Assembly: GCA_965223845.1 (NCBI GenBank)
Contig: CBDCXR010000004.1
Coordinates: 6,688,001-6,752,000 of the forward strand
DNA length: 64,000 nucleotides
Origin: Planctomycetota bacterium
GTDB taxonomy: Bacteria; Planctomycetota; UBA8108; SXIK01
Direction of reading: 5' to 3'
Both the position numbers and the translations under genes were made by a program. Each line of letters begins with the position of its first letter. Positions within the stretch are counted from its first letter, which is position 1. The notes under the pieces were generated by a model that was not told the origin of the DNA, did no database searches, and was given only the letters and a program-made list of their open reading frames with translations. Shown piece after piece: positions 31,172 through 37,143 of the stretch.

Positions 31172-32197
31172 CTACAAGTACTTCTCGAAGAAGCGGATGA
31201 TCTCCTCTCGACCTTCCGCGGTCTCCTCGTGGCCGACGTCGTAGCGGAGGAGACGCCAGTGTTCGGGCACGCCCGCGCGCGAATAGGTGGCACGCAGGTG
31301 GGAGTCGATGATGTCGAGTCCTTCGACGGGGGTGAGCTTGTCCTTCAGTCCGGCGAGTGCGAGATGCGGGCGCGGGCAGATCAGCTCGTTGATTTCGGCC
31401 GTCGTGAAGTGCTTGAGGAGACTCGGGACGTAGTAGTAGATGCCGTGGTAGCGGAGTCCGCGCTTTTTGAGGAGGGTGTGAAACTCGGTGAGGCAGCAGA
31501 TGTCCACGGTCGCGCGAATGCGCTTGTCGAGGGCGGCGAGCCACCACGCCATCGTGCTTCCCATCGAGATTCCGAGCGTCCCGATGCGGTCGGCCGCCAC
31601 ATCCGGACGCGAGCTTACGTAATCGACGGCGCGGAGACTGTCGTACACCATCATTCCCCAGAGGACGCGACCTTCCCACAGCATCGCCTTGAACGTATCC
31701 GATTCCGAGGTGTGACTCCGCTCGCCGAAGACCCAGTGGTCGATGGCGAGTCCGGCCCAGCCGTTCTCCGTGAGTGCGCGCGCGTAGGGCACGTCGTGGA
31801 GGTAGGAGCGGCCGTCGACGAATTCGCGTTTCCCAATCTTGTAGCCGCCACCGTGAGAGTGGTTGAAGACGATCGTCGGGAGTCGTCCGTTCGCGTTCTT
31901 CGGTCGCGCGAAGTACGCGGGGACGGGCTCGATGCCGTTGAGATCGAGCTCCAGGGTCTCGAGCACGTAGCCGTCGCGGTCTTCCTCCCCGAGTTTCCGC
32001 GACGTGATCGGACGGTCGCGCTCAGGGAGGTCGCCGAGAAGCCGGTAGAGCTCTATGCGCCGCGCGTCCACCGATACCGCGTCGTGTTCGGGGGGCCTCG
32101 GCGCGTTGGGTTTTGCGTCGTCGTTTCCGTTCACTGCGCCTCCGACGGTGAGCGAGCCGAGTAGGGCGAGAGTTTCGCGTCGAGTGAGCGAAGGCAT
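31172..32197 (-). CDS. Tat-exported alpha/beta hydrolase (dienelactone hydrolase/esterase-like)
   Basis: LTRRETL twin-arginine signal, nucleophile GISMG, catalytic D (KDKLTP) and H (VGHEET). Confidence 0.88.
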
Positions 32198-32240
32198 TCC
32201 GGATCTCCTTGCGTAGCGGCGAGAAGAACGAACCGTGGTC

Positions 32241-33560
32241 TCACCGGCCGGCTGAACGAGCTTCGACGCCGGTACGCCTCTCTTTTCGTTCGTCCGCGCG
32301 CGGCGCCGCTTCCGGTGCCCGGGCGTTCGTTGCCGAGCTCCACCGGCCGATCGATGAACTAGGAACGAACGAACCGGCTTGGGCGCGCGCTGTCGTCGCG
32401 GCGAATTCTTCGTAGCGATGCCGCTCGGGTGGCCGAAGCCGGGCCCGCTCAAACCGGCGCGAGTAGTTTTCCGCGAAGGAATACTCGAGCTCTGCATTCG
32501 TCGGAGGGCGAGTATCGAACACGCGCTTCCACACATCCGGAGGTTCCATGCACAAGTAGACGACCGGGCCGCGGTCGCCTGCGGTGCCGACCTTCGCGCG
32601 AATCGCGGCGGCGACGTGCCGGTACATCTCGATCCGCGTCGGTCGGAGATAGTGGAGCTTTCCGTCGGCGGCGGGAACGAGCTCGCCGGTGCGGAGATCG
32701 GAGCGGGGAAAGCGCTCGGCCATCGTGTGCTTCATTTCGGGCGGGAAGCGAAGCGAGCCGAGGCTGATCCACGCGATGCGGTTGAGCGAGACCGCACCGA
32801 AGATCGCGTCAATGAGCTCCGAGTAGCCGCTACGCCACTCGCGGTAGCGAACCATCGGATCGAGATGGAACCCGACCGGATACCCGTGCTCCGCGACCCG
32901 GCTTGCGGCGCGGAGACGCGCGGAGAGACTCGCCGTCTTCAACTCGTCGCGCTCGACCACCGCGACCGGATTCACCGACCAGGAAACGACGGTGCGCTCA
33001 CCAGCATCGAGCTCGAGGAGGCGGTCGATGTTATCCGTCTTCGTCTTCAGCTCGAGCACGGCGTTCGGGAGCTCCCGGAAGAAGGGCACCATGTGCGTGG
33101 TCGACTCGGTGAGCGGATCGAGGAGGAGGCTGTCGGAAAGCTCGCCCGTCCCGATGCGAAAGAGCCGCTCGGGAGCTTCGCTCGTCCGCGCGTGGATCTC
33201 GTCCGCGAGAGCATCGATGTTGCCGAACACCGTGATGTGGGGACTCGTCATGTAGAACTGGAGAATGCAGTACGTGCACTCCATCGAGCAGTTGTTCGCC
33301 TCGGCGACCGTGTGGAGATTGCAGCACGCGTAGTTCGTCTTCCAGCCCTGGCAGAGCTTCACGCTGCGTCCGAGGAATCGGCGGACGAGGAGGAGGCGCT
33401 TTCCCGCGGTGAGGCTCAGGTGGCGAGTGCCGTCCGCGAGTTCCCGCGTCGGCTCGAACGTGACCTCGATCGAGCCTGAGTTGCGAAGGATCGCGCGGCT
33501 GATCGGCGAGTCGGCGACCTCGGGGTCGATCACGATGCGGGCGAAGGTGGGGGCGATCAT
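32241..33560 (-). CDS. Spore photoproduct lyase-like radical SAM protein
   Basis: [35 protein letters not shown] and ISLGSLRF. Confidence 0.85.
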
Positions 33561-33689
33561 AGAGAGGCGAGTCTACCGGATGCCCGACGGCGCTGGGCAG
33601 GTCGATCCGCTGGAGGAAGGCAGATGTTTCCGCCGGGAGACGAGCCGAAGGCGAGCCCGGCGGGGCGAACCTTCGCGACGCCCCGGGGG

Positions 33690-33735
33690 AAAAAACTAGG
33701 CTCAGAGCGAGCGCAACGCGCCGGTTCTGAGCCTA
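33690..33735 (-). terminator. Intrinsic terminator
   Basis: Perfect 10-bp stem TAGGCTCAGA/TCTGAGCCTA followed on the minus strand by GTTTTTT. Confidence 0.8.
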
Positions 33736-34590
33736 ACGATCCGGTTTCCGCTCTCCACTCTCCTCAAAGGACGTTCCGCAGCGTCGCTTCTCTCAGAGAG
33801 TTGCGATCGAACTCTCCGCGCTGAAAGCGACTTTGGCGGGCGAACGCTTCGTCGAGTCCAGGGCTCGACTCAGTCCACCCGGTGTCGTCCACCCGGTCTC
33901 GCCTCGACGAACGTCGCGGCCAGACGATTCGACTCCTCTCCTTGTCTGTTCGAGTTCGTCAGCTCAGGTCCGCGCTCGCGACTGAAGCGCGTTCGTCTGG
34001 GTCCATGCCGGCGATCTGAGCGCGGCGCGTTCGGGCTCACCTCCGAGTTCGTCAACCGGAAGACAGACTCGGATCGTCGATCGCTGGCTTTACGTGCGCA
34101 CCCCATTGCTGTCTGAACTCGACCCCGATGTTCTCAGTATTCCGCTCGCGGCCTTGGCGACGACGGGTGTTCACCCGCTTGTGTTCGCGCGCCGCTCAAA
34201 CGACTCGCGTTCGATGCGGATCGCATTCGACGCACGCCGTCACACGGACGGATACGCCGGGAACCAACCGTCCGGCAGGGGCGTGAAGGCTTGCGCGCGG
34301 AGGCCAAGCCTTCACGCCTGCCGCCACCACCACGTACGAAGAGCTTCGGGATCGATGATCGGATTTAGTCGCCGTCCTCGCGCGGCAATTCGTTTCCGCC
34401 CGGGCGCATACACGCGCGCCGATTCGCCGGTGGCGTTCGTCGCGAACTTCTACGCGCAGTACCGAGAGAAGTGAGAAACGAACTGAGGTCCCGCTCCACC
34501 ACGGGCATGAGAGTTCGGTGAAGGGACCCTGCTGAGCGAGGAATAGCTGTCGAAAGCCAGCGCTGTCAGCGAACAGCGCACGAACGACGG
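33690..34590 (-). ncRNA. Candidate large structured noncoding RNA (~900 nt), family not recognised
   Basis: No credible ORF; bounded by a promoter and a terminator; many local hairpins and nested long-range helices. Confidence 0.6.
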
Positions 34591-34595
34591 GCGGA

Positions 34596-34625
34596 TTTAT
34601 ACTCGACCGGTGATGTCGACGTCAA
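34596..34625 (-). promoter_or_regulatory. Sigma70-like promoter
   Basis: Minus strand TTGACG (34625-34620), 18 nt spacer, TATAAA (34601-34596). Confidence 0.7.
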
Positions 34626-34713
34626 CGCGAAAAGAAAAGCTGAATCGAGCCTTTACATCGCGCGCGCGTTCTGGTTTTGCGCGGGGTCTGCAGAGCTCCG
34701 TCGATCGCGCGAC

Positions 34714-35739
34714 TCACTGTTCGCTACTCCAATTGCAGAGGCGTGCGCGGAGCTCGTCGAGCGATACGTGATGCGTGCCGATGTTGCTCACGGCAATCGC
34801 CGCGCTTTCGCTTGCTACGCGCGCGATGGTGTGAAGGCTCCAGCCCGCGGCGTTTCCGAGCGCGGCGACGGAGCTCACTGCATCGCCCGCGCCCGTCACG
34901 TCGCTCACGCTAGTCGCAGCGGATGGGATGTTCGACACGTCGCCGTCGCGACTGAAGATCGCCATCCCTTCTGCACCGAGAGTGAGAAGCACCTGCGCGT
35001 GACCGCCACGCTGTTTGAGCTCGCGCCCGAGGCGTTCGGTGTCGTCGAGGTCGCCACCCACGGCGCCGTGCGCTTCGCGGTCGTTCGGGATCACGAGGTC
35101 GAAGGATCGAAAGAGCGCGACGCGTTCGCGCGAGCTGCCGTGAAGGAGCGCGCCTGAGGACTGCGCTATGCTCGGCAGCTCGGCGAGGAGTCGACGAGTC
35201 ACGAGGTGATCGATCTGGTCGAGAACGACGACGACATCCTTTCCGTTCGACTCGCGGCGAACGGCGTCGATCACGCGGTCCTCGAGGGTCGCGTCGAGCG
35301 GCGCGTCGGGAAGGACGTCCATCCTCAGGATCTCTTGCGACGGCGAGTTGTCGACGCGTGACCGGAGCTTCGTGTAGGTGAACGTGCGCTGAGCAGAGTT
35401 CGTGAGCACGCCGCTCGTCCCGATGCCTTTCGCTTCGAGTTGGGCGCGCAGAACGCGGGCCGCGTCGTCGTCACCGGTGATCGCGACGAGCGATACCTCC
35501 GCGCCGAGATTTCGAATCGAACTCGCGAGATTACCCGACGCCCCCGCCCACTGTTTCTTCTCGCCGAGGCGCACGACGGGAATCGGCCCTTCCTTCGACA
35601 CCTCGTACATCTCGCTCTCTTGGTACTCGTCTAGGAAGAGATCTCCGACGACGAGGATCTTCAGTCCCTTGAACTCGTCGAGCGAGGCGAGGACGTCAGC
35701 CGGCACGGACGGGGATGGCGTGTCAGATGGGGTCGGCAT
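34714..35739 (-). CDS. PfkB-family sugar kinase (RfaE/HldE kinase-domain-like)
   Basis: ILVVGDLFLDEY, PNDREA, LTLGAEGM and DVTGAGD. Confidence 0.85.
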   Translation of the reverse strand: MPTPSDTPSPSVPADVLASLDEFKGLKILVVGDLFLDEYQESEMYEVSKEGPIPVVRLGEKKQWAGASGNLASSIRNLGAEVSLVAITGDDDAARVLRAQLEAKGIGTSGVLTNSAQRTFTYTKLRSRVDNSPSQEILRMDVLPDAPLDATLEDRVIDAVRRESNGKDVVVVLDQIDHLVTRRLLAELPSIAQSSGALLHGSSRERVALFRSFDLVIPNDREAHGAVGGDLDDTERLGRELKQRGGHAQVLLTLGAEGMAIFSRDGDVSNIPSAATSVSDVTGAGDAVSSVAALGNAAGWSLHTIARVASESAAIAVSNIGTHHVSLDELRARLCNWSSEQ

Positions 35740-36652
35740 CTTGGTAGTCGCGCGGAGAAACTCCACGCTCGCTTTTCTGCTTGAGCGCGAGAAGAACGGA
35801 GGCCCAGTACACGGCGCGGGGAGCGCGCCGAGCGTCGGGTGACCAGGGGCCGTGGTCGGTGAGCTCGACTCGCGTTGCGAGCTCCGTTTCAGCGATGCGC
35901 CATGAAATCTCCGCTCGCTCCTCCGGCGACCAGTACCAGTCGTGCGAGAGCTCTCCGCCTTCGCCGATCTCGATCCACGCGCGCGGACCGGGTGCGATGC
36001 CGAGTGAAAACTCGCCCCCGGTCTCGAGGTTCACCGCGACGTCGCGGCCCCACCAACTCGCGAGCTCCTGCGGGTCGGTGAGCTTCGACCAGATCACCCA
36101 CGGAAACGTCGTGACGTCGACGGCGAGCGAGAGCGGCGGTGCTCCTCGATCGATCGCACCGTAGTCGAGCCGCAGCGACGCCGAACCCGTTTCGACGTAC
36201 CCGCGGAGCGAAGGGAGGCCGACCGACCACCAATCCGGCGCGCCCGCCGGCCACTCCGCCGGTGCCCGATCTGCCGTTTGGACGACCGTCAGCTCGGTCT
36301 CCTCGAGGAAGTTCGCGAGCTCGTAGAGAACGATCGTCTCCACTCCGCCCACCGCCCAGCGATACCGGAGACGAGATCCGGGAGTGAGCTCGACGATTTC
36401 GCCGCGGGAACTCGCGGCCGCATCCGCGGCGGCTGAGGAAGCGCGGTCGATCGGTGTCGCCCCTTCGCAGTGGTAGGCGCCGCCGGGTTCGAGGTTTACG
36501 TCCGCCGAGTCACACCACCACTCGGTCAGCTCGTGCGCGTTCGTCAGCGCCCGCCAAACTCGCTCGGGCGGCGCGGCGATGCGCTCTCGGCGACGTACGG
36601 ACCACGGCGCACGCGGAGGACGAAAATCACTGAGGGGAACGAATCGAGTCAC
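35723..36652 (-). CDS. Tandem SRPBCC (AHSA1-like) domain protein
   Basis: IAAPPERVWRALT..ELTEWW and VIWSKLTDPQELASWW; start uncertain. Confidence 0.8.
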   Translation of the reverse strand: MTRFVPLSDFRPPRAPWSVRRRERIAAPPERVWRALTNAHELTEWWCDSADVNLEPGGAYHCEGATPIDRASSAAADAAASSRGEIVELTPGSRLRYRWAVGGVETIVLYELANFLEETELTVVQTADRAPAEWPAGAPDWWSVGLPSLRGYVETGSASLRLDYGAIDRGAPPLSLAVDVTTFPWVIWSKLTDPQELASWWGRDVAVNLETGGEFSLGIAPGPRAWIEIGEGGELSHDWYWSPEERAEISWRIAETELATRVELTDHGPWSPDARRAPRAVYWASVLLALKQKSERGVSPRDYQDADPI

Positions 36653-37143
36653 GGCATGAAGTCGGCGAGAGGAGCGGGGCGGGGCGAGACTGGGCCGCGC
36701 TGCACCCACTATAGCGCGCGCGGCGCCGTCGATACGACTCTCCGAAGCCGCTGGATGCTGCGGGAAGATCGTGGTAGTCGTGGAGTCGACTCCCGGTGGA
36801 AACGGTGGTTCCCGCTCCCGCGTGCGCGTCGCCTCCAAGGCCGCCGCGATCGCCGATCCGAATCTGAACCGGCTCGGCGATTCGCGCTTGCCTCGGGTCG
36901 GGCGCGCAAAGCGGAAGGATTCGACTTGCGGCGCCGCCGAAGACCGCCGACAACGAGAGTCGAGGCAGTGAGTGGAAAGGTCTCAAGCGGAAGGGTACGG
37001 GGGAGTGTGGGGCGTAACTCTCGGCGCGTGCCGTGAGTCGCGCCGCCGACAGGGTGGACGAGCCGAGGAGAGCGGCAGCGAGCGTGCGAGCGCTGCATCC
37101 TCTCGCGTGCTCAGTTTGATCCGGTGACGATGGGAGGAGAGTC

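Follow-up and report, generated by a model that had tools for sequence, protein, structure and literature searches.

Among large non-coding RNAs, GOLLD, ROOL and OLE form families with Rfam models, and all of their stems have covariation support; GOLLD RNAs are in many cases longer than 800 nt, and GOLLD and ROOL are found in phages and prophages, often near tRNA islands, according to the extracts of the literature cited here (PMC12286853). The candidate discussed below, a stretch of ~900 nt in a Planctomycetota chromosome, shares only the size class with these RNAs and, like them, is non-coding; no function is known for GOLLD and ROOL. It matches none of their Rfam covariance models and no homolog of it was found. 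In contrast to GOLLD and ROOL as the extracts portray them, it shows no phage similarity, lies in 64 kb of DNA with 0 tRNA genes, and has metabolic genes as neighbours. A second group of related systems comprises 5' leaders that contain a terminator (of the riboswitch, T-box or attenuator type), which likewise consist of a promoter, an untranslated stretch and a terminator before a co-directional gene. Such leaders usually measure a few hundred nucleotides and are conserved together with the gene that they control, whereas the present candidate would amount to ~1030 nt, was found upstream of none of the homologous genes examined, and matches no leader family. The closest likeness is to genes for stable and small RNAs that possess a sigma-70 promoter and an intrinsic terminator of their own, as the signal architecture is the same, although the candidate unit matches no known RNA family in Rfam.

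Here, we describe the gap of 1153 nt (33561-34713) that contains this candidate, located between the genes for a PfkB kinase and an SPL-family radical SAM protein on a host chromosome of 7.87 Mb with 65% G+C. The window, by which we mean the whole 64-kb stretch of DNA that was analysed, holds GlgC-, GalT-, methyltransferase-, aldose epimerase-, VWA-, PfkB- and AHSA1-type genes in the neighbourhood of the gap (Table 1). Contigs from three runs of one sample reproduce the gap DNA with 0 differences, and the gap DNA is therefore real; the public runs that contain it account for four contigs, all from one study and none recorded as RNA, and the contigs of the three runs may derive from the source sample of the assembly. 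We tentatively read the gap as holding a lineage-specific, self-contained non-coding transcription unit, a prediction from sequence that we consider quite possible rather than probable, and a discrete untranslated transcript of ~0.9 kb is plausible.

Table 1. Features of the gap and its surroundings, and three further units; positions refer to the window, or to the host genome where prefixed C4
Feature	Position	Strand	Basis or remark
AHSA1-like gene, precedes the PfkB gene	35723-36838	minus	
PfkB-family carbohydrate kinase gene, upstream neighbour	34714-35766	minus	Pfam PF00294, E 8.2e-27
Sigma-70-type promoter-like site	34596-34625	minus	TTGACG 34625-34620, 18-nt spacer, TATAAA 34601-34596
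Predicted ~900-nt untranslated transcript	33690-34589	minus	Promoter-like site at one end, terminator at the other; 901 nt between (census)
Perfect 14-bp hairpin, 11-nt loop, no U-tract on either strand	34280-34318 (arms 34280-93/34305-18)	minus	Repeat search
14-nt tandem duplication, unit GTCCACCCGGTNTC, two copies	33873-33900		TRF score 51
Intrinsic terminator	33690-33735	minus	39-nt hairpin (33735-33697) then T6; terminator scan and census
G+C-rich spacer, 129 nt, from terminator to SPL-like start codon, with further local hairpins	33561-33689	minus	
SPL-family (spore photoproduct lyase-like) radical SAM gene, downstream neighbour	32241-33560	minus	Pfam PF20903, E 9.2e-29
91-nt promoter-then-terminator unit in non-coding gap	C4:1054776-1054867	plus	L052/L055/L056 set
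438-nt promoter-then-terminator unit in non-coding gap	C4:5623636-5624074	minus	L052/L055/L056 set
288-nt promoter-then-terminator unit in non-coding gap	C4:7499920-7500208	plus	L052/L055/L056 set

The gap is truly non-coding. A first-pass annotation of the window had noted the lack of a credible ORF over ~1.1 kb, and each measure that we applied agrees with this. The G+C content by codon position is flat across the gap at ~0.6-0.7, in contrast to the flanking genes, where it reaches 0.85-0.9 at one position. A codon model built from long host-genome ORFs was scored in 60-codon windows: the best log-odds value in any of the six frames of the gap is 0.10 and most windows are negative, compared to a mean of 0.26 per codon and a 5th percentile of 0.012 for host genes. 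Finally, none of the 12 stop-to-stop frames of the gap (56-162 aa) matched a Pfam family at E<=1. How exceptional is such a gap? A crude home-made gene finder, the 4632 calls of which cover 86.9% of the chromosome, leaves 117 gaps of at least 1100 nt out of 4631, but most of these retain frame periodicity and probably represent missed genes. Periodicity is missing throughout in 8 of the 108 crude gaps of 1000-1500 nt, the studied gap included. A long aperiodic gap of this kind is thus uncommon in the chromosome, yet not unique.

The sigma-70 consensus consists of TTGACA at -35 and TATAAT at -10, spaced 16-19 nt apart. The promoter claimed in the first-pass annotation, TTGACG-N18-TATAAA with an implied start near 34589, is present in the sequence ~90-120 nt past the PfkB stop codon, and matches 5/6 positions in both hexamers when held against this general consensus rather than one derived for the phylum. 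Sites with at least 5/6 matches per hexamer number 65 over the two strands of the chromosome, this one included, compared to 13 in a reversed-sequence control on one strand. Although only 13% of the chromosome is intergenic, 48 of the 65 sites (74%) are, and 39 of these 48 face the start of a co-directional gene. A stricter promoter scan, which requires a T at the last base of the -10 hexamer, returned 0 sites here, because that base is an A in TTGACG-N18-TATAAA. Directly upstream of the -35 hexamer, the minus strand reads GCTTTTCTTTTCGCG (34626-34640), a T-rich tract that is unusual in a genome of 65% G+C and could serve as an UP-like element. We rejected this tract as a terminator since no hairpin precedes it.

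At the other end of the predicted unit, the hairpin of the terminator comprises a perfect outer stem of 10 bp, an internal loop and a 4-bp GC top, amounting to 16 pairs and -23.7 kcal/mol in our terminator census, with a T6 tract that starts one base past the stem. A separate terminator scan also returned this site, and both the minimum free energy (MFE) and the centroid structure contain the hairpin. On the plus strand no T-run follows it, and the site therefore has the G+C-rich hairpin and U-tract of an intrinsic terminator on the transcribed strand only, as annotated for 33735-33690. At least equally strong sites occur 72 times in the 7.87-Mb chromosome: 40 follow a co-directional gene by no more than 150 nt, 6 by 151-500 nt and 3 by more than 500 nt (the studied site among them), 17 are inside crude gene calls and 6 elsewhere in intergenic DNA. 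Their positions after co-directional genes indicate that such sites behave as real terminators in this genome. Neither the terminator scan nor the census places an intrinsic terminator between the PfkB stop codon and 33735. Transcription from the PfkB gene would reach the same terminator, and the terminator by itself therefore requires no internal start. Both signals are rare in the genome, and both belong to classes that are sited like working promoters and terminators.

The main positive evidence for a self-contained transcription unit in the gap, which makes such a unit plausible, comes from how often the two signals are paired. Our promoter and terminator censuses, which are crude home-made scans of the whole chromosome, found a promoter-like site in 80 and a terminator-like site in 135 of the 2462 gaps of at least 100 nt, and both in 12. 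The order is promoter then terminator on one strand in 9 of these 12 gaps, the reverse in 2, and in 1 the signals are on opposite strands. Arithmetic from the gap counts gives an expectation of ~1 ordered pair, which means that ordered pairs are ~8 times commoner than chance. The annotated combination of an own promoter, an own terminator and no ORF is thus borne out as far as the sequence signals go, with statistical support from the whole chromosome. Gaps of at least 600 nt contain seven ordered units including the studied one, and three of the seven are known: the rRNA operon (6.2 kb) and two units that enclose tRNAs (147 and 236 nt). Another three, of 91, 288 and 438 nt, have no Rfam match at the gathering score and are candidate small RNA genes, judged by the same two signals; in comparison to these and to the tRNA units the studied unit, at 901 nt, is far longer. 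The RNase P RNA and tmRNA of the host genome were not picked up by the census, which shows that its sensitivity is low, and its validation rests on the three known units.

How would such a unit operate? RNA polymerase with the housekeeping sigma factor would bind TTGACG-N18-TATAAA shortly after the end of the PfkB gene, initiate near 34589 and transcribe ~900 nt that can be translated in no frame. Release would follow at the hairpin and T6 of the terminator, 130 nt ahead of the SPL-like gene, and the same terminator would shield the SPL-like gene from read-through out of the AHSA1-PfkB genes. Such a unit would yield ~0.9 kb of untranslated RNA, confined to this genus or species, with the perfect 14-bp hairpin as the sole internal structure that is well supported. 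The use of both signals, a single RNA running between them, and any function are steps that we infer. Counting against the unit are the -10 hexamer without its usual final T, the 18-nt spacer, and the lack of conservation in 20 genomes of the order.

Does the gap carry a unit at all, or is it a spacer free of constraint? It may be leftover DNA at a rearrangement junction, in which case the terminator would end the AHSA1-PfkB transcript after a long tail, the hexamers would be a chance or vestigial occurrence, and any RNA would be functionless. We consider this explanation unlikely; the searches for related sequences count in its favour. Among 20 further genomes of the order, DNA searches found no homolog of the gap, and in sets of 60 relatives and 400 genomes of the phylum only chance-level pieces of 23-56 nt, in 5/60 and 13/400 genomes, which align at scattered positions of the query. 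The host genome returned the self-match and otherwise pieces of at most 38 nt, and plasmid and phage records contain nothing similar to the gap. The homologs sought for the annotated RNA were therefore found neither among the 60 relatives, nor in the 20 order genomes, nor in the 400 phylum genomes. By the same DNA search, RNase P RNA and tmRNA were each recovered in 2/3 same-family genomes at 75-81% identity, compared to 0/3 for the gap, so that an RNA conserved like them would have been seen. An origin from a mobile element was rejected, as there are no plasmid or phage matches and no terminal inverted repeats.

Broken synteny also fits a junction. Homologs of the SPL-like protein are present in 11/30 other genomes, and 11 metagenome loci and 4 genome loci were available as well; those orthologs that share 60-71% identity align from residue 1 onwards. 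Two same-family genomes have SPL-like orthologs (60-63% identity) with different neighbours and upstream gaps of ~260 nt and ~40 nt. The three same-family genomes contain no PfkB ortholog above 33% identity (best matches 30-33%). In genome G003, the gene directly preceding the SPL-like gene (L023 5542-6537) has its best host-genome match at C4:6774286-6775176 (47% identity), ~53 kb away from the host's SPL-like gene. Judged from these comparisons, the SPL-like neighbourhood is rearranged. Further points for an unconstrained spacer are the 14-nt tandem duplication, which resembles replication slippage, the path from the PfkB stop codon to 33735, on which no intrinsic terminator was found, and the folding results described below, in which most 150-nt windows are no more stable than shuffled sequence and long-range helices occur at chance level. 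However, promoter-like sites of this quality are few and mostly intergenic, ordered promoter-terminator pairs are in marked excess, and very few of the strong terminators lie as far as this one from the preceding co-directional gene. In addition, drift that erased all other signal should also have decayed an unselected hairpin of 16 pairs and two 5/6 hexamers, we infer. A non-coding transcription unit thus remains the reading that we prefer.

The first-pass annotation had also offered a very long attenuator-type leader for the SPL-like gene. Here, the site at 34625-34596 would be the SPL-like promoter, followed by a 5' region of ~1030 nt with a conditional terminator, and antitermination or attenuation would set expression. 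The arrangement of the locus is suggestive, as the terminator precedes the start of the co-directional SPL-like gene by 130 nt and most intergenic promoter-like sites face such a start. Neither the stricter scan nor the census found another promoter-like site in the spacer at 33561-33689, but the census detects a small share of real promoters, and absence from these 130 nt means little; the spacer is a probable short 5' region of the SPL-like gene. Comparison of upstream regions argues against a leader. It covered 10 of 15 SPL-like loci (41-71% identity), leaving out L034 (24 nt of upstream sequence), L035 and L037 (same match as L030), and L038 and L039 (40-41% identity; L039 is the same match as L033). 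None of the 10 loci contains gap-like sequence upstream of the SPL-like homolog (best E of 0.33 in blastn; nothing in nhmmer). Seven loci, in which the G+C content is at least 0.60 and the upstream sequence at least 790 nt long, could be judged for coding signal; a long non-coding stretch lies directly upstream in 0/7, and frame periodicity resumes within ~300 nt upstream of the gene start. The short upstream gaps and other neighbours of the same-family orthologs point in the same direction, as does the lack of an Rfam match to any riboswitch, T-box or leader family. Furthermore, the strong hairpin is formed in both predicted structures, and inspection by eye revealed no convincing antiterminator pairing. 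Taken as a whole, these comparisons weaken the proposal of a leader, which we now regard as improbable.

The annotation had primarily proposed a large structured RNA, i.e. one that adopts a defined higher-order fold and has a function in the cell, which would be a new class so far known from one genome. A self-contained unit of ~900 nt with a perfect 14-bp hairpin is compatible with this idea, and so is the whole-length folding z of -2.62 on the minus strand, which is near that of the first 900 nt of 16S rRNA (-2.42). The sense strand is however no lower than the plus strand (-2.86), so that the value is not strand-specific. Seven control gaps gave z values from +0.57 to -2.70 over 14 folds, and one of the seven equals the studied gap with -2.70 and -2.68 on its two strands. 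Known RNAs of the host genome span a similar range, with -2.05 for RNase P RNA and -3.91 for tmRNA. Folding z is a weak test here, since it separates the gap neither from structured RNA nor from a control gap. A scan with 150-nt windows gave a mean z of -0.44 on the minus and -0.73 on the plus strand, and a mean of -0.74 for 16S rRNA. Four of the 22 windows have z < -2 on the minus strand, and each of the four coincides with either the 14-bp hairpin or the terminator area; the 150-nt window 33591-33740 reaches -2.78 on both strands. Outside these two areas the minus-strand values lie between -1.3 and +1.5, which confines the excess stability to the two hairpin areas.

Individual helices lead to a similar conclusion. 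The part of the helix claims that holds is the 14-bp hairpin, which is above chance (14 bp is reached in 1/300 shuffles), has pair probabilities of 0.90-1.00 and a local z of -2.4 to -2.9. The long-range 10-nt complement 34553-62/34082-91 is present in the sequence, but perfect inverted repeats of at least 10 bp occur in 185/300 dinucleotide shuffles of the 900 nt (62%), the pair probability is ~0.33 for 7/10 pairs, and the helix is absent from the MFE and centroid structures. Likewise, the nested GCGAG-GAATA helix at 34536-45 can be traced in the sequence but has a pair probability of 0.0, and the annotated 6-bp local stems are not above chance. The Rfam comparison, listed with the annotation as a check on novelty, gave no family match: there were 0 matches at the gathering score in the whole 64-kb window, and at E<=10 the six matches in 33300-34900 scored 17-21 bits, where the gathering scores are 40-95 bits, and GOLLD, ROOL and OLE were not among the matched families. 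With the gap missing from all three family genomes, two of which have RNase P RNA and two tmRNA by the same search, and with neither phage nor tRNA context, we find no positive support for a large structured RNA and consider it decidedly improbable.

The repeated motifs of the annotation are present in the gap as described. The 11-mer CGAGTTCGTCA occurs twice (33951, 34044), and the 11-mer GTCCACCCGGT also twice (33873, 33887), within the 14-nt tandem duplication. We rejected both as genome-wide motifs, as their 26 and 8 genome occurrences give no sign of a regulon; for GTCCACCCGGT, the 8 occurrences, two of which are those in the gap, are about the number estimated from base composition.

That the promoter and terminator are the shell of a dead protein gene of ~280 codons with an eroded frame is very improbable: although the unit has a gene-like length with a 5' promoter and 3' terminator in a neighbourhood in flux, no frame retains codon periodicity or codon usage, the 12 frames have no Pfam match at E<=1, the proteins encoded upstream of orthologous SPL-like genes are unmatched in the gap (tblastn best E 1.8), and there is no similarity to plasmid or phage records.

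What would a non-coding transcription unit of this kind mean? The gap is best described as an orphan candidate of modest standing, real, uncommon and non-coding, with transcription signals that appear credible at the sequence level. That it encodes a functional ~0.9-kb RNA, structural or regulatory, with its own promoter and terminator in one little-sampled Planctomycetota lineage, and hence a new class of large non-coding RNA, is a slim prospect; the genus has as yet no further sequenced genome from which comparative evidence for such an RNA could come. A literature query for transcript maps of Planctomycetes gave nothing relevant among the 10 entries listed. A real and functional transcript would bring a large non-coding RNA to a phylum with almost none described. 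It would also imply that a simple census of promoters and terminators can pick RNA genes from high-GC genomes, in which RNA screens based on structure and composition perform poorly. The main value of the candidate is as a target for RNA-seq should the organism or its habitat be resampled, and the three shorter units are similar in this respect.

Several minor observations were made along the way. A second gap, C4:2038243-2039320 (L057, 1078 nt), also lacks frame periodicity, with a z of ~-2.7 on both strands and no Rfam match. Between the terminator and the SPL-like start, the G+C-rich 37 nt at 33641-33677 are 84-87% like four copies of an array with a 136-nt period at C4:5033518-5033963 (E ~6e-4 to 0.015), probably a chance or low-complexity match. 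Upstream of the gap, the AHSA1-like and PfkB ORFs overlap by 44 nt (35723-35766) as called from their first start codons, which suggests either that they form one operon or that the true PfkB start lies further in. Downstream, a minus-strand ORF at 31172-32536 has weak Pfam matches to alpha/beta-hydrolases (AXE1, DLH, BAAT_C; E ~1e-6) and overlaps a plus-strand ORF at 31229-32164 (311 aa, no Pfam match), which the crude gene finder prefers. This minus-strand ORF in addition shares ~295 nt with the 3' end of the SPL-like gene, and its true start is therefore probably internal.
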